Virus record (IMG/VR): IMGVR_UViG_3300031417_000415 | Reading direction: 5' to 3' (one strand) | Length of the DNA: 35,027 nucleotides | Source: a virus | Taxonomy: Duplodnaviria; Heunggongvirae; Uroviricota; Caudoviricetes | In this document: in pieces, positions 15,033 through 32,638 of the stretch | How positions within the stretch are numbered: position 1 is the first letter of the stretch | How the letters are laid out: every line of letters begins with the position of its first letter | The notes under the pieces: generated by a model | Seen by the model: only the letters and a program-made list of their open reading frames with translations | Told to the model about the DNA's origin: nothing | Database searches by the model: none | Translations under genes and position numbers: made by a program

Positions 15033-16166
15033 ATGGTCGAAATACCGCTTCCCGCGCACAGCGTGGTGCTGATCGTCGGCGGCCGCAGGGCTCCGCTCGC
15101 GGAGGTCGCAGACCGCGTGCCGGCGTCGGCCGCTGCACCGTGGAACGTCCAGAAGCCGGACGCCTCGCTCGATCTGCTGCACGAAACGCTCGGCATCGCC
15201 AGCATCGTACGCGTCTGCATGGCCGATTCGAACGGCAAGGCCCGCCGCGCCGTCGCATCCGCCGCGCACCGCCGGGGCATGAGGTGCATCTGCATCCGGC
15301 TTCCCGGCGCCGCCGTCTTCGATGCCGCCGACGAGAAGATCGACACGGCCTACGACGTAGCCGCGCCCGGCGACGTCTCCTTCCGGATCGTGCCCATGCC
15401 GTCGGACCGCACCGAACTCGCCGGACCGTTCGACATCGTCGGCGACGTGCACGGGTGCCGGGACGAGCTGACGGAGCTGCTGGGGCTCCTCGGACACCTC
15501 GACGAGGACGGCGAGATGCGTCGCCACCCCGACGGACGCATACCCGTCCTGCTCGGCGACCTCACCGACCGGGGCCCCGACAGCAGGGGCACGCTCGAGA
15601 TCGCGCGACGCCTGACGGAGATCGGCGGCATCGTCATCCGCGGCAACCACGACGACAAGCTGATGGGCTGGCTCCGTGGCAAGGACGTCGAGGTGAAGGC
15701 GGGCCTCGACGTGACGATCGGACAGCTCTCTGACACGACGCAGGAGTGGCGCCTGGACATGGCCGCGTGGATCGGCACGCTCGAGTCGCACCTCATGCTG
15801 GACGGCGGCCGCCTCGCGGTCGCCCATGCCGGCATCGACGAGGAGCATCAGGGGCGCCACACGCGCGGCGCCTGGTCGATGGGACTCTACGGGCGGCCCG
15901 TGAAGGGCGGCACCGAGCTCGACGAGCACGGCTTCCCGCTTCGCGAGGACTGGGCGCTGACCTATGCGGGCAGCGCGACGGTCGTCCACGGCCACGTCGT
16001 CCACGACGAGCCGCGCATCGTCGGCGACGTGGTGGCGATCGACACGGGCTGCGTCCACGGCGGCCGGCTGACGGCCTATCGCTGGCCCGAGCGCGAGTTC
16101 GTGTCGGTGCAGGCAAGAGCGGTGCATTTCGCAAGGGCGGAAACAGTGGAAGCGGACCCGACCTGA
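15033..16166 (+). CDS. Pnkp/PrpE-like metallophosphoesterase with a degenerate N-terminal polynucleotide-kinase domain
   Basis: GPFDIVGDVHGC, GDLTDRGP, RGNHD, AHAG, VHGH, IDTGC..GGRLTAYRWPE are typical of the bacterial Pnkp phosphatase; the N-terminus aligns to the Pnkp kinase but lacks the P-loop; SD AGGAGG. Confidence 0.85.
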   Translation: MVEIPLPAHSVVLIVGGRRAPLAEVADRVPASAAAPWNVQKPDASLDLLHETLGIASIVRVCMADSNGKARRAVASAAHRRGMRCICIRLPGAAVFDAADEKIDTAYDVAAPGDVSFRIVPMPSDRTELAGPFDIVGDVHGCRDELTELLGLLGHLDEDGEMRRHPDGRIPVLLGDLTDRGPDSRGTLEIARRLTEIGGIVIRGNHDDKLMGWLRGKDVEVKAGLDVTIGQLSDTTQEWRLDMAAWIGTLESHLMLDGGRLAVAHAGIDEEHQGRHTRGAWSMGLYGRPVKGGTELDEHGFPLREDWALTYAGSATVVHGHVVHDEPRIVGDVVAIDTGCVHGGRLTAYRWPEREFVSVQARAVHFARAETVEADPT

Positions 16167-16270
16167 CATCCGCGGCCTCCAGAACGGCCGATCCGGCTAG
16201 ATGAGCGATTGCTAGACGCCGCCGACATGGTTTAAGGATAGATAATAATATCATCCTGAAAGCGACCACC

Positions 16271-19200
16271 ATGCTGAGCGGCGTCAAGATCTGGGCATAT
16301 GCAGCGTCGACCGCCATGGTCCTGTGCACGTCCACGATCGCGGCCGCGCAGTCCTCAGACGTCGTCGTGATGCGCAAGATGATCGACGGCCGTCTCGACG
16401 GAGAGCTGCTTCCCCCTTCGATCAGGCCCGCGCCTGCGCAGCCGAAGCCCGGCGATGCCAACTACTATTCATGGCAGGTCACCGCCTGGAAGCAGGTCGG
16501 ATCCTGCGGAAGCCGCGGCACCGAGACGCGGACCGTGCAGTGCGTCCGTACGGACGGTAACGTGGGGCCGGACGCGTCGTGCACGGGCAACGGATCGGGC
16601 ACGAAGCCCATCGCCAGCCGCCCGGCGAACATAACCCAGACGTGCGGATACGGCTGGCAGACAAGCGACTGGAGCGTTCCCGCCCCGACCTGCGGCAAGG
16701 CACGCCGTACCCGGGACGTGGTCTGCATGCGCTCCGACGGAAGCCCGGCGGAAGCCGACAGCTGCCCGGCCGGGTCCAGGCCCGACGCCAGCGAGAGCTA
16801 TACGGACACGTCGACCTGCAGCTACGGCTGGTCGACTGGCGCATGGAGCGAGCCCTCCACGCAGTGCGGTCCCGCGACGCTCAGCCGCGCCGTCGCCTGC
16901 GTCCGCTCGGACGGACGCGCCTCGCCTGCGGACAAGTGCGACGCGGCTGCAAGGCCGGCGACGACCCAGGACGTCGAGATCGAGGTCGGCTGCGCGAACC
17001 ACTGGACGATCGGCGAGTGGGGCTCGCCCGCCGCCGCCTGCGGCAGCACCTTCTCCTATCGCAGCGTGACCTGCGTCCGCTCGGACGGCGTTCCCGTCTC
17101 CGACGACCAGTGCGTCACGACCAAGCCGATCGGGCGAGAGGCAGCGATCGACTATTCGACCTGCACCGACGGCCGCTCGAACGATCACCCGTACGGATGG
17201 AGCATAGGCGAGTACGGCGCTCCCAGCACGACGTGCGGACAGGCGGTCGCGACACGCAGCATCAGATGCACGGGCAACGACGGCAGGGAAGTCTCCGCCG
17301 ACCGGTGCGTGACGCCACGCCCGGAAGCGAGCAGGGCGTCCTACGAGACGAGCGGCTGCACGGTGCGCTGGGCGACCGGCGAGTACGGGGACCCCCAGCC
17401 CGCGTGCGGCGCCACGGCGAGCCTGCGCAGCGTCTCCTGCATGCGCTCGGACGGACAGTCGGTCTCGACCTACAGCTGCCCTGCGGACGAGCGCCCGACG
17501 TCGTCGCGTCCGACGACCGACTATTCGGCATGCTCGTTCGGATGGACGGCCACGTCATGGTCCGACTGGGACGCCACCTGCGGTCCCGCGACGCAGACCA
17601 GGGAGGTCTCATGCCAGCGTTCGGACGGAAGCGCGGCGATCGACGGCAGCTGCGACGCGAAGACGCGCCCGGCGACCTCGCAGTCCTCCTATCAGACCTC
17701 GGGCTGCGGCATCGCATGGAAGGCCGGCGCATGGGAGACGGCGCTTCCGGCGTGCGGAGCCTCGACCCAGTCGCGGCAGGTCGTCTGCATGCGATCGGAC
17801 GGGCAGGAGATCGACGCGGGAGAATGCTCGCGCCTGGCCAGGCCTTCCGACACGCGCGACGTGACGGACTACTCGACGTGCTCGTACGCGTGGGTGACCG
17901 GCGCCTTCCAGGGGGCGACGACGACCTGCGGGACGACGACGCGCAGCCGCAGCGTCCTGTGCCAGCGATCCGACTCCGCCATCGTCGACGACGAGTCCTG
18001 CGCCAGTGCAGGCGACCGCCCTGCGACGAGCGAGACGACCACGCAGACGTCCGGCTGCACCTTTGACTGGGACACGGGCGACTGGGGCCGTGCCGCTGCC
18101 GCATGCGGTCCCTCCGTCCACAGCAGGACGGTGACCTGCCGCCGCAGCGACGGCACGGCGGCCGACCCCTCGCAGTGCGTCAAGACGAAGCCTTCGACAA
18201 GCGAGGCCGTGGCCGACTACTCGACATGCACCTACGACTGGAAGGTCGACCAGTGGGACGGCAGCGGAGGCTGCGGCGACACGGTCACCCAGAGGCGCAG
18301 CGTGTCGTGCATACGCTCCGAAGGCTCGACGGTCGCGGACGCATACTGCGGCAGCCTGAAGCCGGCGCCGTCGCAGACGATCACGGACTATTCGGCATGC
18401 AGCTATTCCTGGAAGGTCGTGAACGGCCTGTGGTCGAGCACCTGCTCGGCTGACGCGACACGCACCAACTCCGTGACCTGCCTCCGCCAGGACGGAGCCG
18501 AAGTCGACGATTCCTTCTGCGGAAACGGCAAGCCGGCGACGGTCGACACGGGCAACTACTCCAGCTGCACATACACCTCGCGATACGGGGAATATCAGAC
18601 CTGCACGACAACTACGGCAGGCGGCACGACGGGCACACAGACGGCGCCCATCGCGACCTGTACCCGTTCGGACGGAGCCTCGGTCGCCACCAGCCAGTGC
18701 TCGTCGCAGAGCATCAGCAGATCCTGCTCGATCAGCTATGTCCCGACGTACAGCGATACGTATGGCACCTGCCAGGCATCGTCAGCAGGAAGCACCACGG
18801 GCACGCAGACGGCGCAGATCACGAAGTGCACGCGATCGACGGATGGCGCCACGGTGCCAAACGGCTACTGCCCAGCGTCGACGACCAGCCGAAGCTGCTC
18901 GATCACGTACACGCCGACGTACAGCGCCACCTACGGAGCCTGCACGCCGACAAGCGCCGGACAGACCAGCGGCACGCAGTCGGCACCCATCTCGAGCTGC
19001 ATCAGATCAAGCGACAACGCCAGCGTGTCCACGAGCTACTGCTCTCCGTCGACAAAGACGCAGCCGTGCACGGTGACCTACGTGCCGACCTACGCCGGCT
19101 ACGGCTCCTGCACGGCCGATGCCCCAGGCAGCACCACTGGTACGCAGAGCGCAGCGATCTCATCGTGCACGATGAACGGCACGACCGTCAGCAACTCCTA

Positions 19201-19510
19201 CTGCTCACCGCAGACCAAGACACAGACCTGCAGCATGACCGGCTTCAACTGCGGAACGACGATGACGCCGGGTGGCACGGCCTGGGGAGTCGATGCCGAC
19301 GGATGGACCAGGATCGGCGCCGTAAGCGGTACGACGCAGGCCGCGCGCATCGCGGACGCACTCCCGAAGTGCACGGCATACGCAAACAACACGCGCAAGG
19401 CAGCCGGCGTGTGCGGCTTCAACGATTCGAACAGCGGAAGCCTGTACTACTGGAGCTCGACTCGCACGACGCAGGTCGGCGGCAGCAACGTGAGCACCAC
19501 CTGCAAGTAG
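16271..19510 (+). CDS. secreted Cys-rich thrombospondin type-1 (ADAMTS-type) repeat protein
   Basis: Signal peptide (…TIAAA-QS); 12 repeats of about 58 aa of form W-x4-W-x5/6-CG-x5/6-R-x-V-x-C-x-RSDG-x7-C-x4/5-P-x11-C, then 4 Thr/Ser-rich variant repeats. Confidence 0.8.
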   Translation: MLSGVKIWAYAASTAMVLCTSTIAAAQSSDVVVMRKMIDGRLDGELLPPSIRPAPAQPKPGDANYYSWQVTAWKQVGSCGSRGTETRTVQCVRTDGNVGPDASCTGNGSGTKPIASRPANITQTCGYGWQTSDWSVPAPTCGKARRTRDVVCMRSDGSPAEADSCPAGSRPDASESYTDTSTCSYGWSTGAWSEPSTQCGPATLSRAVACVRSDGRASPADKCDAAARPATTQDVEIEVGCANHWTIGEWGSPAAACGSTFSYRSVTCVRSDGVPVSDDQCVTTKPIGREAAIDYSTCTDGRSNDHPYGWSIGEYGAPSTTCGQAVATRSIRCTGNDGREVSADRCVTPRPEASRASYETSGCTVRWATGEYGDPQPACGATASLRSVSCMRSDGQSVSTYSCPADERPTSSRPTTDYSACSFGWTATSWSDWDATCGPATQTREVSCQRSDGSAAIDGSCDAKTRPATSQSSYQTSGCGIAWKAGAWETALPACGASTQSRQVVCMRSDGQEIDAGECSRLARPSDTRDVTDYSTCSYAWVTGAFQGATTTCGTTTRSRSVLCQRSDSAIVDDESCASAGDRPATSETTTQTSGCTFDWDTGDWGRAAAACGPSVHSRTVTCRRSDGTAADPSQCVKTKPSTSEAVADYSTCTYDWKVDQWDGSGGCGDTVTQRRSVSCIRSEGSTVADAYCGSLKPAPSQTITDYSACSYSWKVVNGLWSSTCSADATRTNSVTCLRQDGAEVDDSFCGNGKPATVDTGNYSSCTYTSRYGEYQTCTTTTAGGTTGTQTAPIATCTRSDGASVATSQCSSQSISRSCSISYVPTYSDTYGTCQASSAGSTTGTQTAQITKCTRSTDGATVPNGYCPASTTSRSCSITYTPTYSATYGACTPTSAGQTSGTQSAPISSCIRSSDNASVSTSYCSPSTKTQPCTVTYVPTYAGYGSCTADAPGSTTGTQSAAISSCTMNGTTVSNSYCSPQTKTQTCSMTGFNCGTTMTPGGTAWGVDADGWTRIGAVSGTTQAARIADALPKCTAYANNTRKAAGVCGFNDSNSGSLYYWSSTRTTQVGGSNVSTTCK
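16466..19231 (+). repeat. protein-level tandem repeat array (12 TSP1-like units at 16466-18568, 4 variant units at 18569-19231)
   Basis: Repeats counted by hand from the translation; diverged at DNA level, conserved Cys/Trp/Arg and the RSDG motif. Confidence 0.85.
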
Positions 19511-19567
19511 CACGATCGGGAAAGTCGGACGGAAAAGACGTCCCGCCACACATAAAGGGCGAAAAAC

Positions 19568-20322: not shown

Positions 20323-20326
20323 GACC

Positions 20327-20897: not shown

Positions 20898-22040
20898 ATG
20901 GAACTTCCCGTGACGACGACCTTGCGCGAACTGTCCACCATGTTCGAGGCCGAGGGGCGCCGGCTGTGGCTCGTGGGCGGGTGCGTGCGAGACTGGCTGC
21001 TCGGGATCGTGCCTGCCGACATCGACGCGACGACCGACGCGACGCCCGAGGAGCAGATGGCGATCTACGAGGCCAACGGCGTGCGCTACGTGCCGACGGG
21101 CCTCAAGCACGGCACGATCACCGTGATCCGCAACGACGAGATCTACGAGATCACGACGCTGCGGACGGACGTGGCGACGGACGGCCGCCATGCAACGGTC
21201 GCGTACACGCGCGATCTCGCGGTCGATCTCGAGCGGCGCGACCTGACCATCAACGCCATGGCGATGGACCTCGACGGCGGCATCGTCGATCCGTTCGGCG
21301 GGCGCGAGGACCTCGCTGCCGGCCGCGTCCGGTTCGTCGGCGATCCCGTCTCCCGCATCCGCGAGGACTATCTCCGGATCCTGCGGTGGTTCCGCTTCCT
21401 CGGACGGTTCGCCGCGGAGGGCGGCATCGCACCGGATCCGGACGCCTACGCCGCGGTCATGGCGGAGGCCGGAGGACTGTCGAGGATCAGCGTCGAGCGT
21501 ATCTGGTCGGAGATGTCGCGCATCCTGACCGGACGCAACGCCCTCCATGTCCTGCGCCTCGTCCACGACAGCGCCGCATCGGCGGTCATCGGACTGCCGG
21601 AAGGCTCCGAGAAGCGGCTCACGATCGCACTGGAGCATGGCATGGACCCCGCGACGACGCTCGGCGGCTACCTCGGGGACGCCGGCGACCGCACGCTCGT
21701 CGCCTGGAAGCTGTCCAACGCCGAGAAGCACCGTGCTCGGTTCGTGGCTAGGCGGCTCCGGCAGGACGGCTACGGGACGAACGCCGCAAGGCTCGACCTC
21801 GTGAATGGCGAGGATCTGCGCCTGGTGACCGACACGATGCGCCTTGCCGGCAGCGACGGCATCGCCGCGGTCGAGACGTGGAGCGTTCCGGTCTTCCCGG
21901 TCGACGGCGACGATCTCATCGCGCTCGGCATGCAGCAGGGGGTGGAGATGGGCATGCGGATGAAGCGGATGCGCCAGGAATGGATCGCGTCCGACTACAC
22001 GATGACGGCGGCAGAGCTGCTCGGAAAGGTAACGGCATGA
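20898..22040 (+). CDS. cca: CCA tRNA nucleotidyltransferase (class II)
   Basis: LVGGCVRD, DID (DxD), TGLKHGT, EITTLRTD..TDGRHA, RRDLTINA, DPFGG, RIREDYLRILR: the alphaproteobacterial CCA-adding enzyme signature; SD GGAGG. Confidence 0.92.
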   Translation: MELPVTTTLRELSTMFEAEGRRLWLVGGCVRDWLLGIVPADIDATTDATPEEQMAIYEANGVRYVPTGLKHGTITVIRNDEIYEITTLRTDVATDGRHATVAYTRDLAVDLERRDLTINAMAMDLDGGIVDPFGGREDLAAGRVRFVGDPVSRIREDYLRILRWFRFLGRFAAEGGIAPDPDAYAAVMAEAGGLSRISVERIWSEMSRILTGRNALHVLRLVHDSAASAVIGLPEGSEKRLTIALEHGMDPATTLGGYLGDAGDRTLVAWKLSNAEKHRARFVARRLRQDGYGTNAARLDLVNGEDLRLVTDTMRLAGSDGIAAVETWSVPVFPVDGDDLIALGMQQGVEMGMRMKRMRQEWIASDYTMTAAELLGKVTA

Positions 22041-22339
22041 AGCTCGACCAGACGATTCGCCGGCTGAGGCTATACCACGGCTTCCGGCAGCGCGAGGTGT
22101 GCGAGCGGACGGGCCTGTCCACCTCGATGATGTCGGAGATCGAGCGGGGGCAGAAGCAGCCGACCCTGCAGGTCATCGGCCGGATCGCGGAGGTCTATGG
22201 AGTCGCTCCCTCGGAGCTCGTCTATCTGGCCGAAGCGGTCGGGCGCCCTCCCGGAGAACCGCTCCCGCCGATGCCGCATCCGACGATCGCACGGATGATG
22301 ACGATGCACGAGGCGCAGATGTCCGTAAGGACTCAGTAA
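22037..22339 (+). CDS. XRE-family helix-turn-helix transcriptional regulator
   Basis: IRRLRLYHGFRQREVCERTGLSTSMMSEIERGQKQPTLQVIGRIAEVYGV is a Cro/C1-type HTH; ATGA overlap with cca. Confidence 0.9.
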   Translation: MKLDQTIRRLRLYHGFRQREVCERTGLSTSMMSEIERGQKQPTLQVIGRIAEVYGVAPSELVYLAEAVGRPPGEPLPPMPHPTIARMMTMHEAQMSVRTQ

Positions 22340-22377
22340 TCCCCGCAAGGGACCGGAAAAACACGAAGGAGAGACCG

Positions 22378-22851
22378 ATGCGCTTCATCATGCACATCAT
22401 GCAGGGTGCCAATCTAGAGGCTACCGCGACGCTGACGTCGAACGAGGACGAGACCCCGGAGGATCTGTCGCAGCGCGCTCGCGACGTGCTGATCGCCAGC
22501 GCCATGGACGTACGGCTAGCCCGAAGCGAGCAGGTCATGACAGAAGGCATGCTCGAGCGCCTGGTCGACGTCTTCGCGCAGACGGTGCTGGAACAGGCCC
22601 GCGCGGGCACGAGCCGGTACGTGACGGTCTACACGCGCGGCGACGACATCTACCAGCGCGACGGACAAATCACGCTGCTCGGCAGCGTCAACGACATCAC
22701 CGGCCTCATCGACATCGAGGACGACGAGACCGTGCGGCGCAACAGCTTCGGCGCCATGGCACGCGAGAAGCTCGGACGTGATCCGACGTCGTCCGACATC
22801 GTGCTGGAGGACGTGTCGGCGGAGGACATGGAGCGGAGCTTCCAGCGATGA
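22378..22851 (+). CDS. hypothetical protein (157 aa)
   Basis: SD AGGAGAG then ATG at 22378; its stop overlaps the next ATG. Confidence 0.65.
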   Translation: MRFIMHIMQGANLEATATLTSNEDETPEDLSQRARDVLIASAMDVRLARSEQVMTEGMLERLVDVFAQTVLEQARAGTSRYVTVYTRGDDIYQRDGQITLLGSVNDITGLIDIEDDETVRRNSFGAMAREKLGRDPTSSDIVLEDVSAEDMERSFQR

Positions 22852-23864
22852 GCGCGCCTGCCATACGGGACCGCAACGCCCGGCGGCTGCTGAAGGAGAA
22901 GCTCGCACTGATAGCGGGCGGTCCTGCCTTCGGCATTCCCGTGACCCTGATTCCGTCATGGGACAGACTGACGGACGGCATCGACCTGCACGACATCACC
23001 ACCGTAGGCGCGATATGGGCCATGACGTCATTCATGATGACCTCGATCTGCATGGTGTCGATAACGGGAATGACCTTCATGTCGTCCAAGCGCACACCCG
23101 ACATGCCGAAATGGGCCGATCGAGACAGCGTGAGACGGGTCATCGAGGCTCTTTGCGATGCGACGAGACACGGCCTCGCCTCGGATCGGAGAATGGCGGT
23201 GACTCGGGATCTCTCGAGGGCCTCGGACCTGCTCTCCTACCTGTGCGGCAAGCCGGTCTGGATCCATGCGGAGAACTCCGACGAGAAGGCCGACGGCACC
23301 GGCCTGCTGGCGCTCAGGGGCGACGCGCTACGCCGGGACGGCGAGACGCTATGCGATCTGCTGGACAGGAAGCACGGCGCCGACATGCTCCACTTCCAGG
23401 CCGGGCTCGGAAAGGTCGTCCCGCTGATCGCCTCCGTGGCAAGGGACTTCGGACTGGAGACCTTCGAGTTCACAGCGTCGGAAAGGGCTCTGCCAGGGCA
23501 GATCAGGGGCGAGGCTACCCCCATCCCGCAGCTGGCCGCGCCGACGGTGGCGCTCGCGGACGAATGGCTGTCCGGGTCCCGCGGCAGCGTACCCGATCTC
23601 CTGTCGATAGCCGCGGATTCCGCGGCTCGCCAGGACCTGGACGAGCTGCAGCGGTCCTGGAAGACCGCGCGCCTGTCCGCTCCCGACGACGAGGCTGCAC
23701 AGCGGGTCGACGACACGTTCGGCTCGGCGCTTTCCAACATCTCGCGGACCCTCTGCGAGGCCATCGCGGCGCGCTCCGCCGGCGACGAGCAGGATCTGCA
23801 GATCCAGGGGCGCTACATCGAGAGCAAGCACGGCAACACGGCAGGCGACCTCGTCGCCTCGTGA
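22848..23864 (+). CDS. hypothetical protein (338 aa)
   Basis: ATGA overlap; long protein-like ORF; no family recognised. Confidence 0.7.
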   Translation: MSAPAIRDRNARRLLKEKLALIAGGPAFGIPVTLIPSWDRLTDGIDLHDITTVGAIWAMTSFMMTSICMVSITGMTFMSSKRTPDMPKWADRDSVRRVIEALCDATRHGLASDRRMAVTRDLSRASDLLSYLCGKPVWIHAENSDEKADGTGLLALRGDALRRDGETLCDLLDRKHGADMLHFQAGLGKVVPLIASVARDFGLETFEFTASERALPGQIRGEATPIPQLAAPTVALADEWLSGSRGSVPDLLSIAADSAARQDLDELQRSWKTARLSAPDDEAAQRVDDTFGSALSNISRTLCEAIAARSAGDEQDLQIQGRYIESKHGNTAGDLVAS

Positions 23865-23887
23865 CCATCACACAGGGGAACCGCCAT

Positions 23888-24556
23888 ATGAACATCGAAC
23901 GCTCTCCTCACGGCTACAGCCTGGTCCACTTCATCGACGCCGTGGGCTCGGACTGCTCGCTACAGGACAGCAGCCTGGCGTCGGAGGCCTGCTGCTGGTT
24001 CGGCGTCTGCCGTTCGCCGGCTCCCCGGCGAGACGAGATGACGCGGATGCACCTCACCGTCGAGATGACCCGACAGGTGGCGCGCGCCATGCGCGCGGCG
24101 CTCGAGGGGGTTCCCTTCGAGAACGCGGAGTTCGTCGACCGCTACGGTAGCACGTGCATCGTCGCCGCCTCGAAGGACGCGCGAGCCGTGATCCGCATCG
24201 GCGTCACGAAGGGATTCCACGGGAACAACGGCATGCCGATGCACCTGGATGCGGACGGCATCCGTAGGCTGATGCCCTTCCTTCTCGGCTTTCTCGCCGG
24301 AGGCAGCGTTTCCGAGAAGGGCGGCGCCTCTGAACTGGAGGATCCGGCCGCACGTGTGCTGGACGCGAAGATCCCGGTATCGATGCTGGCAAGGGCCGAC
24401 ATCGGCGAGACCGGCGTCTCGGCGCAGGACCTGATCGACGCCTTCGTCCTGATGGAGAGATACTATGGGGACGATCTCGTCGGCGCACTCGGTCACGACA
24501 ACGCGATGCGCATCGGTCAGATGAGGACGAAGCTCGGCCATCTGGCGAAGCGATAG
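23888..24556 (+). CDS. phage-type hypothetical protein with a tandemly duplicated domain (222 aa)
   Basis: FIDAVGSDCSLQDSSLASEACCWFG...RMHL and a second copy FVDRYGSTC...IRIG...PMHL; SD GGGGA. Confidence 0.65.
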   Translation: MNIERSPHGYSLVHFIDAVGSDCSLQDSSLASEACCWFGVCRSPAPRRDEMTRMHLTVEMTRQVARAMRAALEGVPFENAEFVDRYGSTCIVAASKDARAVIRIGVTKGFHGNNGMPMHLDADGIRRLMPFLLGFLAGGSVSEKGGASELEDPAARVLDAKIPVSMLARADIGETGVSAQDLIDAFVLMERYYGDDLVGALGHDNAMRIGQMRTKLGHLAKR

Positions 24557-24585
24557 GCGAGACAGGCATCGGAAGGGAAAAAGAG

Positions 24586-25119
24586 ATGGGCATCGATCGC
24601 GAACGCAAGCCGCGCCACCCGGGCTTCCATCGCAAGGAGAAGCCGGTGAAGGCGCATCGTCCGTCGCCGGCATCGTCGCGGTCCACGCTCGACAAGCGCC
24701 GTCCGGACAACCACCGGGTACCCGACGAGGGTCCGATCAGGATATTCTTCGACGACGAGCGGGAGATGCCGGAAGGCTTCGTGATCGCGCGCACCGTGCC
24801 TGCCTTCAGGGAGCTGATCGAGAGCATAGACCTCTCGCGGCTCCACACGATATGCTTCGACTGGCATCTGAACCACGATCATCAGACCGTCTCGGGCGAG
24901 AGCGGACACGACGCCGTCGCGATCCTGATCGAGATGATCGAGCAGGACCACGAGCGGTTCTCGGGCCTCAGCAGCATCTGGCTGCACAGCACCGACCTGA
25001 AGCAGGCGATCGCCATGGCGCGCAGGCTCGACCAGTGCCTGTTCGCAGACGAGCGCAAGGACTTCTTCGACGACGTCTACGTGCTTCCGGACACCTATTC
25101 GCCGAAGGCCGGAGTATGA
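24586..25119 (+). CDS. cyclic-phosphate-processing receiver-like domain protein
   Basis: IFFDDEREMPEGF..AR, ICFDWHL, SGHD, WLHSTD resemble the family pattern LyLDDeR..P.gw...r, sLDHDL, tGyD, vHSaN; basic N-terminal extension. Confidence 0.65.
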   Translation: MGIDRERKPRHPGFHRKEKPVKAHRPSPASSRSTLDKRRPDNHRVPDEGPIRIFFDDEREMPEGFVIARTVPAFRELIESIDLSRLHTICFDWHLNHDHQTVSGESGHDAVAILIEMIEQDHERFSGLSSIWLHSTDLKQAIAMARRLDQCLFADERKDFFDDVYVLPDTYSPKAGV

Positions 25120-26042
25120 CCGCCATGGACACGCCTACCGCCCTTGGGTCCATCGTGCGGATGCACATGGGCGCGAACTTCAAGGAAGGCATGCTCGTCA
25201 TGCGGCAGGACCAGGACCGGTCGCTGCCGGCCCGCCTGACCATCGCGGTCGGTGCAGGAAGCGACGACGCCCACTCGGTCTCGTTCTGCTCCTCGGCGTA
25301 CGAGCTGGAGACGATCTCGCTGCCTGCGTCCGGCTCCGTGCTGATCATGTACGGCATGGGCTCCCTGATGGAGCGCGTGCGCCATCTCGCTCCAGGGCGC
25401 CTCGCCGCGCTGGAATGGCTCGAGGAGCATCGGCCGGACTGGCGCGAGCACGGCGACATCGCGATCGTGGCGACCGATCCGGACGAACCGACGTGGATCA
25501 GTCCCGTGCCGCTGCGTCTGGTGCCCGATCGCAATTCCGAGGGCTTCCGCGACATGCCCGAGGGCACTACCGGGATTCCGGTAGGCGACGCGCATCCCGG
25601 CGCCTTCGGCTTCCGCAGGCGCAACCACGTCCACGAGGGCGTCGACCTGTACGTGCCGGAGGGCACGCCGGTCAGCGCGGTCGAAGCCGGCGAGGTCGTC
25701 TCGGTCATTCCCTTCACCGGAATCATCGCCGATCCGCCGTCGCCGTTCTGGCGGGACACCTGGGCGGTACTCGTCGAGGGCGCAAGCGGAACCGTCGTCT
25801 ACGGCGAGGTGGACCGCGTTCCCGTGAAGACGGGCGACGAGATCGCCGCCGGCACCGTGCTCGGCTACGTCAGGGAGGTCCTCGTGAAGGACAAGGTCCC
25901 GCCGCGTCCCAAGAGCATGCTGCACCTCGAGCTCCACCGAGGCCGGGTGAACGACGCCTGGGAATGGCCCGTCGACGGGCCGAGGCCGCCCAGCCTGCTC
26001 GATCCGACCGAGCTGCTGCTCTCGGCATGTCTTAGCGACTGA
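25116..26042 (+). CDS. M23-family peptidase-like protein with an unknown N-terminal domain
   Basis: HEGVDLYVPEGTPVSAVEAGEV (HxxxD), GDEIAAGTVLG, SMLHLEL (HxH motif with the first His replaced by Met); no signal peptide; ATGA overlap. Confidence 0.75.
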   Translation: MTAMDTPTALGSIVRMHMGANFKEGMLVMRQDQDRSLPARLTIAVGAGSDDAHSVSFCSSAYELETISLPASGSVLIMYGMGSLMERVRHLAPGRLAALEWLEEHRPDWREHGDIAIVATDPDEPTWISPVPLRLVPDRNSEGFRDMPEGTTGIPVGDAHPGAFGFRRRNHVHEGVDLYVPEGTPVSAVEAGEVVSVIPFTGIIADPPSPFWRDTWAVLVEGASGTVVYGEVDRVPVKTGDEIAAGTVLGYVREVLVKDKVPPRPKSMLHLELHRGRVNDAWEWPVDGPRPPSLLDPTELLLSACLSD

Positions 26043-26165
26043 CGGCGATCGCAACGCCACGTTTACTCCTGCGGCTCTAGGGCCGCGGGACGCCGACGCA
26101 CGCGGCCTTTCCAAAGGGGAGAGATGACTGCGTCAGATAGGACGTAACATCTCTGAGATGGGAAA

Positions 26166-28613
26166 ATGAAGATGAAAAAGTTCCTCGTATCCTCGGCCAG
26201 CATCCTGGTTCTCGCCTCGCTCTCCGCTTGCGGCGGCGGCGGTGGCGGCGGCATCAACTCGCCCGGCACGTCGGCTCCGCCGACGACGGGCGGCGGCGGT
26301 GCCGCGCCGACCCCGACGCCCACCCCTGCTCCTGCTCCCGCGCCGACGCCTGCGCCGACGCCAGCTCCGACGCCGGCCCCCACGCCGGTCGCGGTCGCGC
26401 CGACGCCGACGCCCACTCCTGCACCGACCCCTGCACCGACGCCTGCACCGACGCCGGCACCGACGCCTGCACCGACTCCTGCACCCACGCCGGCGCCGAC
26501 GCCTGCGCCGACCCCGACCGAGCCGGTGTACTACGATCCGGTGACCCCGCCCGCGGGCTACGTGATCACGCCGTCGGAGAAGCAGCCGGTCCGGTCGGTG
26601 AACGACACGGCCGAGTTCCGCCGCAACTACGGCGCGAACGAGTTCATGGGCGCGCTCTACGCGCTCGACTCCAAGTACACCGGCCAGGGCGTCAAGGTGG
26701 CCGTGATCGACGACGGCGTGGTCAACGTCAACGGCGAGCTCGACGACCGCATCGACATGAACCTGTCCAAGGACTTCGGCTACGTGATCGCGGCCGACGG
26801 CACGCGCACCAAGCGCAACGAGCTGGGCAGCGCGACCTCCGACCACGGCACGGCCGTCGCCAACATCATCGGCGCGGCGGCGAACGGCAAGGGCACGGTC
26901 GGCTATGCGCCGAACGCGACGCTCGTCGTCCTGCGCGTCGCCGACTGGGACGAGAAGACCCAGTCGGAGATGCTGTTCCACACCGACGAGGCGATCCGCT
27001 ACGCGGCGGACAACGGCATCAAGCTGGTCAGCAGCTCGCTGGTCGGCGGCAGCCCCAGCTGGACGGCGTCGACCACGCGTCTCGGCGCGACGGGAGGCCT
27101 GCTGATCAACTCGGCCGGCAACTTCGGCTCGGCCGATCCGTACAACGCGCAGTGGATCACGGACGACAACCGCAAGGCGGTCCTGTTCGTGGTCGCGCTC
27201 TCGCCGGCGCTCAACTTCTACCAGATCGAGAGCTACTCGAACAAGGCGGGCAGCATGAAGGACCGCACCGTCGCGGCCGTCGGCTCGAACGTCACCACGC
27301 TGGTCGACGGCTCGGTGGGCGTGTTCTCGGGCACCAGCTCGGCGACGCCCAGCGTCGCGGCGCTCGCGGCCGACATCCTGTCCAAGTGGCCGCAGCTCAC
27401 CGGCCAGCAGGCCGGCGACGTGATCCTGCAGACCGCCAAGGATCTCGGCGCGCCCGGTCCCGACGAAATCTACGGCATGGGCCTCGTCGACTTCAAGGCG
27501 GCGCTCTCGCCGGTCAATCCCAAGCTGTCGAACGGCACCGCGCAGACCAGCGTCCAGACCTCGGTCATGGGCGTGCCCGCCGCGATGGGCGCAGGCTCGA
27601 TCCAGACCGCGCTGTCGAACGTCACGGTCCTCGACGAGTTCGGCCGCGACTACACCGGCTCGGTCGCCGGAATGGTCGTCAAGCCGCAGCTGGCGGCCGA
27701 CCGCCGCATCGAGCGTCGCGTACGCCAGATGAACAGCCACGCCGACCTCTCGTTCGGCGGCTTCTCGGGCAGCTTCGGCTACACCACGAACCGCTTCGGG
27801 CCAGGCGCCGATCAGGTGCGTACCGAGGCCATGGCGGGCAGCATGGCCTTCGTCAGCGGCCAGGACGGCTTCCGCGCCGCCTGGAACTCGTCGGACTCGC
27901 TCCAGTCGGACGTCATGGGCCTCGCGCCCTTCGCCGACGGCGTGCTCGCCTACGTGCCCCAGGCCGACACGAGCTTCGGCTACGACCGCTACGTGGCAGG
28001 CGGCAAGCTCGGCCTGACGATGTCGTCCGGCCGGAGCTACGGCAGCGCGGCCAGCGCGGTCACCGTCGGCTGGTCGACGTCGCACACCGACGTGCGCTTC
28101 TCGTACATCGACGAGAGCGGTTCGATCATGGGCATGCCCACCGGCCAGGGCGCCCTGCGGCTGGGTCGGGGCGCACGCACGATGATGATCGAGGCGCATC
28201 GCACGTTCGGGCTCGCCGACGGCTGGAACCTGGAGGGCTACGGCTCGCTCGGCATCACCCGCCTCAAGATCGACGCGGCGTCGCTGGTGACCGGCTCGAC
28301 CGGCATCCTCGGCTCGCGCATCGGCTTCCAGGCCACCGGCCTGATGCTCGGCGGCCTCGTGTCGTTCGGCGTCGCGCAGCCGCTCGCGATCGAGTCGGGC
28401 TCGGCTAAGCTGACCTACGGCGCGGGCTACGACCTGACCAGCCAGTCGCTGGTATACCGCACCACCAAGGCGAGCCTCGCAGGCGAACGTCGCCTGCAGC
28501 TGACCGCCGGCTACTCCACCGGCGGCGTACGCTCGTCGTTCCGCATCGGTATGATGCAGGACGTCGCGAACGGCTCGACCAGCGCGCTCGCAGGCTGGAA
28601 CGCCCGCTTCTGA
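26166..28613 (+). CDS. S8 subtilisin-like lipoprotein serine protease, autotransporter-like
   Basis: Lipobox LSAC (Cys22) plus poly-Gly, Pro-Thr linker, catalytic D (VAVIDDG), H (DHGTAVA), oxyanion N (SAGN), S (SGTSSATP); beta-rich C-terminus ending in Phe. Confidence 0.9.
26304..26525 (+). repeat. coding low-complexity tandem repeat (APTP units, about 12 bp)
   Basis: Repeated GCACCGACGCCT-like units encoding a (PT/PA)n linker. Confidence 0.9.
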
Positions 28614-28620
28614 CGACCAC

Positions 28621-28654
28621 TGCCCCCGGACCACGGTCCGGGGGCATATTTTTT
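28621..28654 (+). terminator. Rho-independent terminator after the S8 gene
   Basis: TGCCCCCGGAC-CACG-GTCCGGGGGCA (11-bp stem) followed by TATTTTTT. Confidence 0.9.
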
Positions 28655-28739
28655 ATGGCGGATGCCGGAAAAACCGACGACGCGGCGGATCCCCGAACGA
28701 GGGGCAGAAGACGATCGGAACGAACGAGGGGAAAAGACG

Positions 28740-29246
28740 ATGCAGCAGGAGAAGATGCCTCCGGGCGGGCGCAAGCGCGAGCCGAGGCGGAAGACGGCGC
28801 TGCCTGCCAGGCTGCGTACAGACGGGACATGGGGAGACGCGACGGTGCTAAACATGTCGTCACGGGGGCTGATGATACGGACGCAGCAGGCCATCCGGCC
28901 CGGCACCTACCTCGAGATACGCCGCGGCACCGATCTCGCCATCGTCGGAAGGGTCGTGTGGTGCAGCGGACCATATGCCGGCATCAGGTCTCAGGACGCC
29001 ATCGACGTCGAGGCCGCCGCACGCAGCACGGCACGTGCGTCGTCTGCCGTCGGCGGAAGCGATCGCCGCTCGTCCGCGCGCCGGCCGGCAAGCGCCGCCG
29101 AGAAGGCGGAGCGCAGCCGGATGCTCGGCTCGCTGATCCAGTACGTCGCCATGGCGGCGGCCGTCGCCCTCGGAGGCGTGATCGCGGCCTCGGTGGCGGG
29201 AGACGTGCTGCACTCCGCCTTCAGGCCAGTCGCCGCAGCCCTGTAG
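28740..29246 (+). CDS. PilZ-domain protein with a C-terminal TM helix
   Basis: REPRR (RxxxR) and NMSSRG (N/DxSxxG) c-di-GMP motifs, GRVVW, hydrophobic C-terminal helix; start uncertain (28662/28740/28755). Confidence 0.8.
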   Translation: MQQEKMPPGGRKREPRRKTALPARLRTDGTWGDATVLNMSSRGLMIRTQQAIRPGTYLEIRRGTDLAIVGRVVWCSGPYAGIRSQDAIDVEAAARSTARASSAVGGSDRRSSARRPASAAEKAERSRMLGSLIQYVAMAAAVALGGVIAASVAGDVLHSAFRPVAAAL

Positions 29247-29274
29247 CATACGACGTCCGAACGGAGAGACATCA

Positions 29275-29523
29275 ATGACCATACCCGACATCGTCGGCAA
29301 CGTCGGCGTGCTGTGCATCCTCGGCAGCTATCTTGCGGCGCAGACCGACCGCATGAATCCCCGCGGAGACGCGTTCCTGGTAGTCAACGGCGCAGGCTCC
29401 GCGCTCGTGCTGTACTCGCTGCTGTACTCCTACAACCAGTCCGCCTTCGTGATCCAGTGCTCCTGGATCGCCATCAGCGTCGTCGGACTGATCCGAAACA
29501 GGATACGACGCAAAGAAAGTTGA
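29275..29523 (+). CDS. CBU_0592-like small three-TM membrane protein
   Basis: DIVGNVG..ILGSY..Q, VNGAGSALVLYSL, FVIQCSWIAISVVGL pattern; SD GGAGA. Confidence 0.7.
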   Translation: MTIPDIVGNVGVLCILGSYLAAQTDRMNPRGDAFLVVNGAGSALVLYSLLYSYNQSAFVIQCSWIAISVVGLIRNRIRRKES

Positions 29524-29573
29524 GACATTCCATCCTGAAAGTGTGGCATCATACGTACAGGAGAGGAAAAGTC

Positions 29574-29756
29574 ATGAGCATCGCGACCCCGATCGACTAC
29601 GCAGACACCCGCCTCCGGGCCAACGCACTGTGCTGCAGCCTGGCCTTCGGCGATGGAGATCCCGCCCCAGTCATGCGTCAGGCCGGAAGCGCGCTGGCGG
29701 ACCTGCAGCGCCATCGCCGCCACCTGCACGCCAAGCGCAGCTGGCAGAACTCCTAA
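29574..29756 (+). CDS. small hypothetical protein (60 aa)
   Basis: Strong SD GGAGAGG; ATG at 29574. Confidence 0.5.
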   Translation: MSIATPIDYADTRLRANALCCSLAFGDGDPAPVMRQAGSALADLQRHRRHLHAKRSWQNS

Positions 29757-29764
29757 AATCCCAT

Positions 29765-29798
29765 GGCCTGCCCGCAGACCCTGTGATACGGGCAGGCC
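29765..29798. other. 10-bp inverted repeat (hairpin)
   Basis: GGCCTGCCCG-N14-CGGGCAGGCC; no U-tract. Confidence 0.6.
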
Positions 29799-29813
29799 GC
29801 AAGGGGTAGAGAA

Positions 29814-29915
29814 ATGTCCACGACGCAGACCACGACCGCGAAACGCGCCGCCGCCATGCGGCCGGCGTCCGTCGCCGTGCGCGCGCCAGAGGCCCGCACC
29901 ACGTCCTCCGCCTAG
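29814..29915 (+). CDS. possible 33-aa micro-ORF (MSTTQTTTAKRAAAMRPASVAVRAPEARTTSSA)
   Basis: Purine-rich SD-like AGGGGTAGAGA upstream; sits in an otherwise empty gap. Confidence 0.25.
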   Translation: MSTTQTTTAKRAAAMRPASVAVRAPEARTTSSA

Positions 29916-30004
29916 CCTGACGGCTCGGGACGGAGGCATCGGCCCCGTCCCGCTTCCCTCGATGGGATCGGACGCGGCTCCGAGATCATCCAGGGAACGG
30001 AAAA

Positions 30005-32638
30005 ATGAAGAAGATCGTGATCGTCCGGGGCCAGCCCGGATCAGGGAAGAGCCACCTCCTCGACGAGGTCGGTCTCGGCGGCTACTCGCTGTCGCTCGAC
30101 GCGATGCGCCAGGCCTTCTCCAGCTTCACCATGGCGCCATCGGGCGAGATGATCATGTCGCACGAGAACTCGTTGTACGTGATGGAGGTCGTCATGAAGT
30201 CCATGAACGCCCGCGTGCACACCGGCGAGACCATCGCCTACGACGCGACCAGCCCGAAGCCGGTCGACGCGATGCGCATGGCCCAGCACGCGGGGAAGAG
30301 CGGCTACGAGGCGATGTACGTCGACTTCTTCGGCGTCCCGCTGGAGGTCGCGCGGGAGCGGCTGCTGTCGCGCCCGGTCCACCGGAAGGTGCCCGACAAG
30401 GCCCTGGAGCGCATCCACGCGGCGGCCGAGCGGCTGCCGGACGGCGAGAACGTCGTCTACGTCCGCGACGAGGAGAGCTACGCCAAGGCGGTCGAGGACG
30501 TGCGCGCGTTCCTCGCCCGCGAGATCCAGGTGCGGGACCTGTCGTCATACGACCGCATCGTCCACATCGGCGATCTTCAGGGCACGGCAGGCCCGCTGAT
30601 GGACCCGCTCGCGCCGACCGCGAACGGCATCGACGTGCCGGGCACGTTCTTCGTCTTTCACGGCGACATACTCGACCGCGGCGAGGAGAACGCCGAGGTC
30701 ATCCGCTGGTGGCAGCGCAACGTCATGGGGCGCTCCAACTACGTCCACATCGCGGGCAACCACGAGGACCACATCGAGATCCAGGGCTCCGGCGGGACGT
30801 CGGGGTCGCGCGAGTTCGTCAACCGCACGCTGCCGGCGCTTCGTGCCGACGGCATCACCGACGCGGAGCTGAAGGCGATCGGCGCCGGCACCGTGCCCGT
30901 GCTCCAGTACTTCTGGCGCGGCAAGGCCGTGCTGTGCAGCCATGCGGGCTACACGCGCTGGCCGCAGCGCATCGATCTCCTGTCGCAGTCGCAGGTCCGC
31001 AAGGGCAACGCGCACCACCAGACGCCCATCCACGAGATGTGGAACGCATGGTCGGCCGAGGCCGAGAAGCGCGGCGTCGACGGCGACGACCTCGACGCAT
31101 GCTGGAGCGGCACGGAACTGCCCGTGACCGAGCTGTGGCAGGCGTTCGGCCACCGCAACACGGCGATGTCTCCGATCGTCTCCGGCCGCTGCCTGGTCCT
31201 GGAGGGCCAGGTGGAGTTCGGCGGTCACATGCGCTTCGCCGTCCTCTCCGGGAACGGGTGGGAGCCCATCGCCATACGCCCGCGCCGGTTCCGGCCGTCG
31301 CACCGCGACCAGCAGATCAACATCGCCGAAGGACGCCAGATGTTCGAGAAGAAGATTCCCATCGCACCGTGGATCGCGCGAGGCGAGGACGGCGAGACGC
31401 CGGTACCCGCCGAGGTGATGGACGCGTTCGCGTCGCATCCGCTCGTCTACTCGCGCCGGTCGGAGGTGCTGCGCCACGTCAGCGCGATCAACTTCACCAA
31501 GCAGGCGTTCTTCGACCACCAGTGGGACACCGTCAACATGAAGGCCCGCGGGTTCTTCGTGTCCGACGACAACGTCGTGGTCGCGCGCTCGTACGAGAAG
31601 TTCCAGGCTCACAAGGAGCTCGCCGAGACCCTCGAGGAATGCGACGAGATCGTCCAGCGCGAGATCCGCTACGACGCGGTCGCCTACTCGAAGCCGAACG
31701 GCTTCCTCGGAATCTCGGGCTACGACTCGGTCACCGACAGCATCGTGCTGGCGTCGAAGTCGCGTCTCGACGGCGACTTCGCAGGCTACTTCCGCACGAT
31801 CGCGCAGGACGTGCTGGGCGACGTGGGCATGGAGAAGCTGTTCCGCCTGAACCGCGACCAGATCGCCTCGTGCGTGTTCGAGGTCGTCGACCCCGTCAAC
31901 GACCCGCACATCATCAAGGAGGACCGCCCGCGGCTGATCCTGCTCGACGTCGTACGCCGCCACCACGAGTTCGAGCGGATGTCGTACGAGGATCTGGTTC
32001 AGATCGGCGCGTGGCTCGGCTGCGAGGTCAAGCAGATCGTCTTCAAGGCGCCCAACTGGATCGCGCTGAAGAAGCAGATCCGGCAGATCACCACCAGCTA
32101 CGACTGGACGCCCGGCCGTGGCCATCCGCACAGCGAGGGCGTGGTCGTCGAGAGCGCGCGGGGCGAGGGCGAGCAGTTCATGTTCAAGCTCAAGGGCGCC
32201 TTCTACCGCCACTGGAAGTGGATGAGGACCGCCAAGGACCTCATCGTGGCCTTCCGCGCGAAGGGCGGATCGCTCGACATGTCCCGCTACGAGCACGACG
32301 AGCGCGCGATGGGGTTCCTGACCTGGGCGCTCCGCCAGCCGACCGACGTGCTCTCGCGCGACATCGTCTTCCTGCGCGACGTCTACGAGGCAGACCCTGA
32401 CGGCGTGCTGATCCTGGAGCAGGCGCCGCCCGCTCCGCCGGGACCGGTCGTGCCCGACCAGACCATGTTCCTCAAGGGCGTCGACGCGCTCGCTAGGCAG
32501 GTCGAGGCGGGCACCGCCAAGATCGCAAGCGTGCGCCGGATCATCGACAAAGCGTCTGAGGACGAGCATCGTCTGGCGGCGTTCGACGCGCATCCGGCAT
32601 CGGCGACACTGCGCGGCTTCGCGCTGGCCGACGCCTAA
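30005..32638 (+). CDS. RNA repair fusion: polynucleotide kinase + calcineurin-like phosphoesterase + Rnl1-type RNA ligase
   Basis: Kinase GQPGSGKS, LDAMR, YDAT; phosphoesterase IGDLQG, GDILDRG, GNHE, SHAG, FGHR; ligase KARGFF, ARSYEKF, motif I KPNG, FE, LLDVV, EGVVV, FKLK. Confidence 0.88.
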   Translation: MKKIVIVRGQPGSGKSHLLDEVGLGGYSLSLDAMRQAFSSFTMAPSGEMIMSHENSLYVMEVVMKSMNARVHTGETIAYDATSPKPVDAMRMAQHAGKSGYEAMYVDFFGVPLEVARERLLSRPVHRKVPDKALERIHAAAERLPDGENVVYVRDEESYAKAVEDVRAFLAREIQVRDLSSYDRIVHIGDLQGTAGPLMDPLAPTANGIDVPGTFFVFHGDILDRGEENAEVIRWWQRNVMGRSNYVHIAGNHEDHIEIQGSGGTSGSREFVNRTLPALRADGITDAELKAIGAGTVPVLQYFWRGKAVLCSHAGYTRWPQRIDLLSQSQVRKGNAHHQTPIHEMWNAWSAEAEKRGVDGDDLDACWSGTELPVTELWQAFGHRNTAMSPIVSGRCLVLEGQVEFGGHMRFAVLSGNGWEPIAIRPRRFRPSHRDQQINIAEGRQMFEKKIPIAPWIARGEDGETPVPAEVMDAFASHPLVYSRRSEVLRHVSAINFTKQAFFDHQWDTVNMKARGFFVSDDNVVVARSYEKFQAHKELAETLEECDEIVQREIRYDAVAYSKPNGFLGISGYDSVTDSIVLASKSRLDGDFAGYFRTIAQDVLGDVGMEKLFRLNRDQIASCVFEVVDPVNDPHIIKEDRPRLILLDVVRRHHEFERMSYEDLVQIGAWLGCEVKQIVFKAPNWIALKKQIRQITTSYDWTPGRGHPHSEGVVVESARGEGEQFMFKLKGAFYRHWKWMRTAKDLIVAFRAKGGSLDMSRYEHDERAMGFLTWALRQPTDVLSRDIVFLRDVYEADPDGVLILEQAPPAPPGPVVPDQTMFLKGVDALARQVEAGTAKIASVRRIIDKASEDEHRLAAFDAHPASATLRGFALADA

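Follow-up and report, generated by a model that had tools for sequence, protein, structure and literature searches.

T4 Pnkp and Rnl1 counter the PrrC anticodon nuclease through tRNA repair, and the 3'-healing domain of T4 Pnkp is a DxDxT/HAD phosphatase. Among other RNA-repair assemblages, the bacterial Pnkp systems are cellular (PMC3675462, PMC4411300), the fungal and plant Trl1 unites ligase, kinase and cyclic phosphodiesterase in one chain (PMC6379707), and jumbo phages carry scattered RNA ligases, kinases, phosphoesterases, cREC proteins, CCA enzymes, PTH2 and tRNA-related genes (PMC7824862). Sirtuin-centred phage neighbourhoods with a T4-like ligase, cREC, a kinase and a calcineurin-like phosphoesterase, and also with SAK-HAD, were predicted in 2022 (PMC9503650) by the authors of the jumbo-phage prediction of 2021 (PMC7824862), Iyer, Anantharaman, Krishnan, Burroughs and Aravind. 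The DNA analysed here, IMG/VR virus record IMGVR_UViG_3300031417_000415 (35,027 nt, the whole of which is called the window), encodes four enzymes of RNA ends, namely a Pnkp-derived phosphoesterase, a CCA-adding enzyme, a cREC protein and a kinase-phosphoesterase-ligase fusion (Table 1). The four genes are new members of known families within a known type of repertoire, and they are not a conserved unit. On balance, the window is probably part of a giant element of Sphingomonas-type bacteria that is phage-like and coded almost entirely on one strand, and the four genes are independent modules of its RNA/tRNA-repair repertoire.

With the jumbo-phage repertoire the locus shares the Rnl1-type ligase, polynucleotide kinase, calcineurin-like phosphoesterase, cREC, CCA enzyme and SAK-type HAD phosphatase, the PTH2 and aminoacyl-tRNA synthetase genes of related elements, and the scattering over a very large genome. 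It differs in the joining of kinase, phosphoesterase and ligase into a single protein, in the additional phosphoesterase, which derives from Pnkp and has a dead kinase, and in a carrier without recognisable virion genes in the parts searched; neither a sirtuin nor KptA was seen. The sirtuin-centred type 2 neighbourhood (PMC9503650) is further removed from it in that no SIR2 occurs in the window open reading frames (ORFs) scanned, and ligase and cREC are separated by 4.9 kb and five unrelated genes. As in the Pnkp-Hen1 and Pnkp1-Rnl-Hen1 systems (PMC3675462, PMC4411300), the fusion runs in the order kinase, metallophosphoesterase, ligase and falls in the class of about 850-870 residues, and the phosphoesterase at 15033 is a close homolog of the CthPnkp phosphatase that lacks a ligase like Pnkp1. 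In contrast to those systems, Hen1 is absent, the ligase of the fusion is Trl1/T4 Rnl1-like, and the 15033 protein has lost P-loop and lid.

The fusion also shares with T4 Pnkp plus Rnl1 the 5'-OH kinase, the healing of 3' ends and sealing by the Rnl1 family (KxxG, EG and KxK motifs), but it would heal 3' ends by a binuclear metallophosphoesterase, has the three activities in one chain, and carries a ligase whose profile is nearer to fungal Trl1 than to T4 Rnl1. Like Trl1, it is predicted to be a single-chain, trifunctional enzyme, and the best structural matches of its ligase domain are Trl1; unlike Trl1, it has the reversed domain order and a metallophosphoesterase in place of a 2H phosphodiesterase. 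Lastly, the same three domains occur full-length in the phrog_8238 'RNA ligase' of large Bacillota phages (Staphylococcus Herelleviridae, Brochothrix A9 gp147, SPbeta-like and Lactobacillus plantarum phages), although these proteins are only 26-32% identical to the fusion of the window.

Table 1. Features of the window and of two related loci (window positions unless a locus is named).
Feature	Position	Strand	Basis
MHYT-PAS-GGDEF-EAL signalling protein	1-2409, window start		
Phosphoesterase: pseudokinase + CthPnkp-type binuclear metallophosphoesterase, 377 aa	15033..16166	+	Pfam Metallophos
Class II CCA-adding enzyme (tRNA nucleotidyltransferase), 380 aa	20898..22040	+	PF01743 (PolyA_pol head) + PF12627 (RNA-binding)
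Small HTH_3 (Xre-type) regulator	22037..22339	+	gene call and Pfam; start overlaps CCA stop codon
g23, 157-aa protein of unassigned family	22378..22851	+	synteny
g24, 338-aa protein of unassigned family	22848..23864	+	gene call
g25, 222 aa, N-terminal PUR/Whirly/MRP-like fold (predicted)	23888..24556	+	structure model; constant upstream neighbour of cREC
cREC protein, 177 aa, receiver fold	24586..25119	+	PF20274 (cREC_REC), 47 bits against gathering cut-off 27; phrog_1479
Strong intrinsic-terminator-like hairpin, just after S8 subtilase stop codon	28621..28646	+	11-bp stem, 9 GC pairs, T-run
PilZ-domain protein	28740-29246		
Fusion: kinase + metallophosphoesterase + Rnl1/Trl1-like RNA ligase, single chain, 877 aa	30005..32638	+	AAA_33, Metallophos, RNA_lig_T4_1
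HAD_SAK_2 ('Swiss army knife' RNA-repair phosphatase)	L002 19380-20015, about 4.4 kb past window end		
389-aa protein, C-terminal PF09414 RNA-ligase domain, about 200 N-terminal residues of unassigned family	L001 14869-16038 (Sphingomonas sp. 3-13AW)		

Gene order and co-occurrence in related elements

The gene order of the window is kept in two close relatives (L218 and L010), whose proteins are 89-97% identical to those of the window and which are too close to count as independent evidence. L017, with a cREC 65% identical, has the string CCA-HTH-g23-g25-cREC-M23-S8, and L016, L018 and L221, with cREC about 50% identical, have g25-cREC-M23 and neither CCA nor fusion at the locus. The only related reference genome found, Sphingomonas sp. 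3-13AW, carries its locus on a 581-kb contig in the order endonuclease-like gene, phosphoesterase, g23, cREC, M23, S8, PF09414 RNA ligase, backbone genes and HAD_SAK_2. There is no CCA gene on this giant contig and no fusion homolog, PF09511 ligase or RtcB genome-wide; the genome holds one PF09414 ligase and one CCA homolog, the latter on another contig and 45% identical to the enzyme of the window. The PF09414 ligase, which has no PDB sequence match, replaces the fusion in the same interval, between the same anchors (S8 and the x34887/b324 pair), and in both the window and 3-13AW an RNA ligase lies within 5 kb of cREC.

Farther away, two distant giant contigs encode a phosphoesterase homolog (56-57% identical) and a fusion homolog (39%) on the same contig and strand, separated by 140 kb in one case and 68 kb in the other. 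Phosphoesterase and fusion share a replicon in three element lineages, at distances of 14 to 140 kb overall. In the 10 kb around the fusion, three of the 80 best viral loci have a CCA gene and none has cREC, and the single phosphoesterase match was weak (27% identity) and lay inside the span of the fusion gene itself. The only close CCA-fusion adjacency among these 80 loci is that of two near-identical IMG/VR phage contigs (L099/L100 8721-9347), in which about 650 bp separate the end of the CCA gene from the fusion homolog downstream of it.

Two links are stable, g25-cREC(-M23) and g25-phosphoesterase. The g25 gene adjoins cREC in L010, L016, L017, L018 and L219-L222, and in both distant elements a homolog (34-38% identity) precedes that of the phosphoesterase by 1-3 kb; in one of them a Band_7/SPFH gene (L056 7556-8464) lies between the two. 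Phosphoesterase and fusion are recurrent but unlinked cargo of the element class, and CCA-HTH, kept as a pair in L010, L017 and L218, is a mobile cassette. The window has a thrombospondin-repeat gene, several small ORFs and CCA-HTH between phosphoesterase and cREC, and in 3-13AW the phosphoesterase is two genes upstream of cREC, with the g23 homolog as the sole called gene between them. Because the string of 3-13AW is compact, the dispersal in the window looks like an insertion into (or a deletion from) an older healing cluster.

Beyond the window, a metagenome locus with an identical fusion (L002, whose coordinate + 20004 is the window coordinate) reaches 7.6 kb past the window end. Its segment 15074-20630 (window-equivalent 35078-40634) holds an R2K-type ATP-grasp gene and then a conserved block that ends with HAD_SAK_2 and DUF3307, the HAD_SAK_2-to-DUF3307 part being shared with Sphingomonas sp. 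3-13AW at 70-74% identity. PTH2-type peptidyl-tRNA hydrolase genes occur 5 kb from a fusion homolog (L227 17508-18386) and on the giant contig of 3-13AW (G001:C1:458867-459217), and an aminoacyl-tRNA synthetase gene is present in a related element. RNA and tRNA genes recur throughout the whole element class.

Domain architecture and predicted activities

All four repair ORFs are + strand and occupy the frame that GC3 (G+C at third codon positions) favours, and independent gene calls on an identical metagenome contig agree for three of the four; the exception is the ORF at 15033, for which a 97%-identical 377-aa protein is on record. The catalytic residues are intact in all four proteins, apart from the Gln in the first phosphoesterase motif of the fusion described below. 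The original prediction, made from the sequence alone, had named a Pnkp-like phosphoesterase, a CCA-adding enzyme, a cyclic-phosphate-processing receiver-like protein and a kinase-phosphoesterase-Rnl1 ligase fusion at these positions, and all four family assignments held, the first being refined to a CthPnkp-type enzyme with a degenerate kinase rather than a relative of T4 Pnkp. It had also stated that no Hen1 partner is visible and that the locus differs from bacterial Pnkp-Hen1, which agrees with the lack of any Hen1 or methyltransferase match in the window ORFs scanned and of Hen1 in the Pfam list for the 7.6 kb beyond.

In the fusion, AAA_33 spans residues 5-144, Metallophos 184-350 and RNA_lig_T4_1 513-730, and residues 1-796 match positions 1-731 of the 737 of phrog_8238 (E 2.3e-106). 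Homologs were found in 135 reference phage records (tblastn) and 305 IMG/VR stretches; the closest (37-44% identity) come from uncultured giant elements and Rhodobacteraceae genomes. The best matches of the family profile are Trl1 tRNA-ligase domains (E 1e-26 to 7e-20), followed by lambda phosphatase, CthPnkp phosphatase, T4 Rnl1 (1.7e-10), CthPnkp kinase and T4 Pnkp kinase. No CthPnkp ligase chain occurs among the best 60 of the 120 structural matches to this profile, and a PDB search with the single sequence retrieved no CthPnkp chain. Residues K15, D32, R35, D190, D221, R225, N252, H253, H313, H383, K563, E711, K728 and K730 are invariant in 27 members, as are the Rnl1 (PF09511) ligase motifs K563-N565-G566, E626, E711-G712 and K728/K730. 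Bacterial Pnkp was considered as an identity for the fusion and rejected: the domain order fits, but the protein reaches 16.4 bits on TIGR04075 against a cut-off of 750, no Pnkp-type (Rnl4) ligase appears among those best 60 matches, and no Hen1 or other methyltransferase gene was found beside the fusion or any homolog whose locus was examined. The fusion is therefore distinct from bacterial Pnkp-Hen1 and is predicted to be a Hen1-independent heal-and-seal enzyme with kinase, phosphoesterase and ligase in one chain. ADP-ribosylglycohydrolase genes adjoin fusion homologs.

Of the canonical metal and phosphate ligands of lambda-phosphatase/CthPnkp-type enzymes (DxH, GDxxDR, GNH[ED], H, GH), the fusion family keeps D190, D221, R225, N252, H253, H313 and H383 invariant. 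The first motif, however, is GDLQG in all 27 homologs, so that Gln (Gln192 in the fusion) stands where CthPnkp has His189. In CthPnkp, H189D yields an enzyme that is a cyclic phosphodiesterase only, whose 2'-phosphate product is sealed by yeast Trl1 and not by T4 Rnl1 (PMC1920235), and H189Q or H189N lowers the activity (PMC2190708). Because of this Gln and the Trl1-like ligase profile, a 2'-phosphate-dependent route is allowed, not shown. It is improbable, if attractive as a division of labour with the separate module, that the fusion opens the cyclic phosphate only to a 2'-phosphate and seals by such a yeast-like route, in which case the dead-kinase phosphatase, g25, cREC and SAK-HAD may strip the leftover 2'-phosphate or serve ends that the fusion cannot use.

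The phosphoesterase at 15033 matches the CthPnkp phosphatase (PDB 4J6O) over residues 127-367 with E 4e-60, and positions 164-421 of TIGR04075 (bacterial Pnkp) with 267 bits. The nine residues essential by mutagenesis in CthPnkp (D187, H189, D233, R237, N263, H264, H323, H376 and D392; PMC3675462) are all kept in the HMMER alignment to 4J6O, as D138, H140, D176, R180, N205, H206, H265, H321 and D337. The N-terminal portion of about 125 residues aligns to Pnkp kinase domains of AAA_33-bearing relatives and has no Pfam kinase match; throughout the family, which comprises about 70 sequence clusters, GGRR..APLA stands in place of the P-loop GxxGxGKS/T, the lid is shorter by about 30 residues and no DxxR region remains. 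By its sequence, the protein derives from Pnkp/Pnkp1, carries a dead kinase and lacks a ligase, and it is predicted to act as an RNA 2',3'-cyclic phosphodiesterase and 2'/3'-phosphomonoesterase. A PrpE/ApaH diadenosine tetraphosphate (Ap4A) hydrolase was rejected as an alternative identity: scores on the ApaH models (40-63 bits) are under their cut-offs of 176-223, the PrpE cut-off is likewise failed, and the CthPnkp phosphatase is far closer. Among reference phages, the protein yields only weak metallophosphoesterase-domain matches. Between it and the CCA cassette lies a 1079-aa protein (16271-19510) with nine ADAMTS-type thrombospondin type-1 repeats (PF19030, E 7.5e-59), which has relatives at the 3-13AW locus (on the opposite strand) and on a 447-kb scaffold (L227), where the relative has 1933 aa and is encoded 4 kb upstream of a fusion homolog.

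The product at 20898 is, from its sequence, a class II CCA-adding enzyme, with addition of CCA rather than of A or CC as the predicted specificity. It scores 109 bits on PF01743, is matched full-length by human TRNT1 structures (residues 6-377, E 1e-71), is assigned to phrog_2244, and has readable motifs A (GGxVRD..DxD), B (RRD) and D (EDxxR); it reaches no NCBIfam equivalog cut-off. It is about 43% identical to the CCA enzymes of alphaproteobacterial jumbo phages. From 20898 to 28613 the gaps between genes range from -4 to 123 nt, and the hairpin after S8 probably ends a CCA-to-S8 transcription unit; from these short gaps and the hairpin, CCA and cREC are probably co-transcribed.

In cREC, the acidic triad D56, D57 and D92 is invariant in 15 aligned sequences. 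The domain was defined in a jumbo-phage survey together with operonic links to RNA ligases (PMC7824862), and the protein is predicted to open cyclic phosphates. It has no match in reference phages, and among 401 Pseudomonadota genomes a clear cREC occurs in six. A metagenome scan with the cREC alignment, relying on one peptide pattern such that misses are not evidence of absence, gave seven loci only, none on the distant giant contigs. In three metagenome-assembled Pseudomonadota loci (L050 5902-9057, L051 7039-9090 and L052 1737-3815), cREC follows a tubulin/FtsZ-like GTPase gene, with a two-AAA-domain ATPase upstream of the pair in L050. Throughout the related elements, cREC is accompanied by an M23 peptidase and an S8 subtilase, which in the window together occupy 25125-28613, the subtilase having 815 aa. 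M23 invariably comes next on the 3' side of cREC (after 5 nt in the window), which pairs a secreted-type peptidase with a cytoplasmic-type enzyme.

The model of g25 is of moderate confidence (predicted local distance difference test, pLDDT, 76.5; predicted template modelling score, pTM, 0.71). Its top Foldseek matches are human PURA and trypanosome MRP1/2 (prob 0.97-1.0, with a weak E of 6e-3), and atlas rows include Whirly and DUF3276; the language-model atlas gave nothing informative. As a lead, the first 140 or so residues are predicted to adopt the fold of a single-stranded nucleic-acid binder. The fold model of g23 (pLDDT 75) has no convincing structural match. The gene g24 is variable, being missing from L017 and the 3-13AW locus, and gave no Pfam, PHROG, PADLOC or language-model atlas lead; a SIR2-like identity was rejected after comparison with a SIR2 protein gave no similarity.

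Taken together, the favoured reading would run as follows. A 3'-end healing module, made of the pseudokinase/Pnkp-type phosphoesterase, g25 and cREC, would bind broken RNA and remove 2',3'-cyclic, 2'- or 3'-phosphates, having been split in the window lineage by the inserted thrombospondin-repeat gene and CCA-HTH cassette. The CCA enzyme would rebuild trimmed tRNA 3' ends, and the fusion, being self-sufficient, would phosphorylate the 5'-OH, open the cyclic phosphate and seal the break without Hen1, with a further phosphatase added by the downstream SAK-type HAD. Many such repair genes would have been acquired separately by the element class, as in jumbo phages. The enzymes may have tRNA as their substrate, may cooperate and may be used against ribotoxins.

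The carrier element and competing readings

The carrier element is at least 0.55 Mb in size and almost entirely one-strand. A 552-kb Joint Genome Institute (JGI) metagenome contig and contigs >1 Mb encode exactly the same fusion protein, the G+C content is 66-70% across the window, nearly all coding frames of which are on the + strand, and related gene arrays likewise run on one strand. At the DNA level, the match to known phages is limited to a 164-nt CCA segment in Brevundimonas jumbo phages, and no plasmid matches the window. Because the fusion was not found in any of 301 Sphingomonadaceae genomes and cREC in only one of 251, the region appears to be a rare accessory element. No Rfam family matched in the window, and PADLOC matched no defence-system model to any of the nine enzymes and proteins without a family that were tested, returning generic HTH models only, as for the HTH regulator. 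Signalling and secreted-type proteins are also encoded (MHYT-PAS-GGDEF-EAL, PilZ, M50B, S8, M23 and LprI), and the cyclic di-GMP parts among them, MHYT-PAS-GGDEF-EAL and PilZ, sit on an otherwise phage-like gene array. A 383-aa protein at 2441-3592 has weak sub-threshold matches to a GNAT acetyltransferase and an ESCO-type zinc finger (PF13878, 17 bits, cut-off 27).

Several observations weigh against an RNA-repair repertoire on a phage-like element. The window has no tRNA gene, and among the other loci fetched such genes are confined to the related 581-kb contig of 3-13AW, which has tRNA-Arg(CCT), tRNA-Gly(TCC) and tRNA-Met (L006 18089-18279; L009 16427-16501) within about 45 kb of the cREC locus. 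Conserved order among related elements is a weak sign of common function, given shared ancestry. The neighbours of cREC in the other five of the six genomes that have it are tubulin/FtsZ-like GTPases with AAA ATPases, or SIR2, and two more distant metagenomic cREC loci are both without an RNA ligase, with a DNA glycosylase and a phosphoribosyl pyrophosphate (PRPP) synthetase at one and nothing RNA-related at the other. Because cREC elsewhere adjoins these non-ligase genes, its substrate may not be RNA. Likewise, the 15033 protein scores 166.9 bits on the PrpE Ap4A-hydrolase model NF010148, under its cut-off of 340, and matches Ap4A hydrolase structures. Lastly, no capsid (HK97) or terminase Pfam match was found on the related 581-kb contig, where divergent virion genes could escape the models.

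On these grounds, phosphoesterase and cREC may instead destroy nucleotide signals or NAD-ADP-ribose (ADPr) derivatives, such as Ap4A, 2',3'-cyclic nucleoside monophosphates or cyclic ADPr phosphate, and so blunt nucleotide-based immunity, with fusion and CCA enzyme as unrelated neighbours. The processing of cyclic ADPr or cyclic nucleotides has indeed been proposed for cREC (PMC7824862, PMC9503650), and the SIR2 and PRPP synthetase genes at other cREC loci, the PrpE score and the ADP-ribosylglycohydrolase genes beside fusion homologs point the same way. This is nonetheless unlikely: the phosphoesterase is far nearer to CthPnkp than to PrpE and still carries a vestigial RNA kinase domain, the g25 protein, its conserved partner, is modelled with a nucleic-acid-binding fold, and the window ORFs scanned gave no match to a sirtuin, Macro, NADAR or Nudix family.

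It is also unlikely that the element is a plasmid- or chromid-like replicon, with genes that serve the cell in the repair of stress-damaged RNA or in protection from the tRNase toxins of competitors, and not in phage counter-defence. The missing capsid and terminase matches agree with such a replicon, as do the ordinary prophage matches on other contigs of 3-13AW, the signalling and secreted-protein genes of the window and the cellular nature of the bacterial Pnkp systems. Against it stand the phage-like gene organisation of the window with its many PHROG matches, the origin of the closest reference homologs of fusion and CCA enzyme from large phages, and the PTH2 and aminoacyl-tRNA synthetase genes of related elements, which are jumbo-phage traits (PMC7824862); moreover, divergent capsids would escape the Pfam models used. 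The original prediction had read the genes jointly as tRNA repair and counter-defence, of which the common RNA 3'/5'-end chemistry stands, whereas the counter-defence role is putative, with no recognisable virion genes found where these were searched.

Improbable, too, is the original proposal that the four genes form one coordinated, interdependent and undescribed heal-seal-and-retail system reversing internal tRNA cuts and 3'-CCA damage. In its favour, all four are enzymes of RNA ends encoded on the same strand in a span of 18 kb, CCA and cREC share one tight gene string ending at a terminator, phosphoesterase and fusion recur on one replicon, and 3-13AW has an RNA ligase of a different family in the interval of the fusion. 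The co-occurrence expected on related replicons nevertheless failed, the set being together only in the near-identical L218 and L010 and dissolving elsewhere into subsets and wide separations, and the fusion on paper has all heal-and-seal activities alone.

Implications for giant elements and Pnkp-derived families

The favoured reading, a repertoire of independent modules, has consequences for the annotation of giant elements: the proximity of RNA-repair genes on them does not justify calling them one system until their co-occurrence has been tested, and that test failed here for the set of four. The presence of unrelated RNA-ligase families between the same flanking genes in two related elements is a clear case of non-homologous displacement. 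The phosphoesterase represents a populous, unstudied Pnkp-derived family in which a dead kinase is kept on a fully intact 2',3'-phosphatase and which travels with a PUR/Whirly-like protein. The fusion, in turn, belongs to a predicted Hen1-independent kinase-phosphoesterase-ligase family with hundreds of phage members, for which no assay was found in the literature. The natural change of this family at the residue that switches the repair pathway in CthPnkp poses a direct biochemical question; if the 2'-phosphate-dependent route were true, such sealing would be unprecedented for bacteria or phages, and the fusion would be the natural version of the engineered H189D switch.

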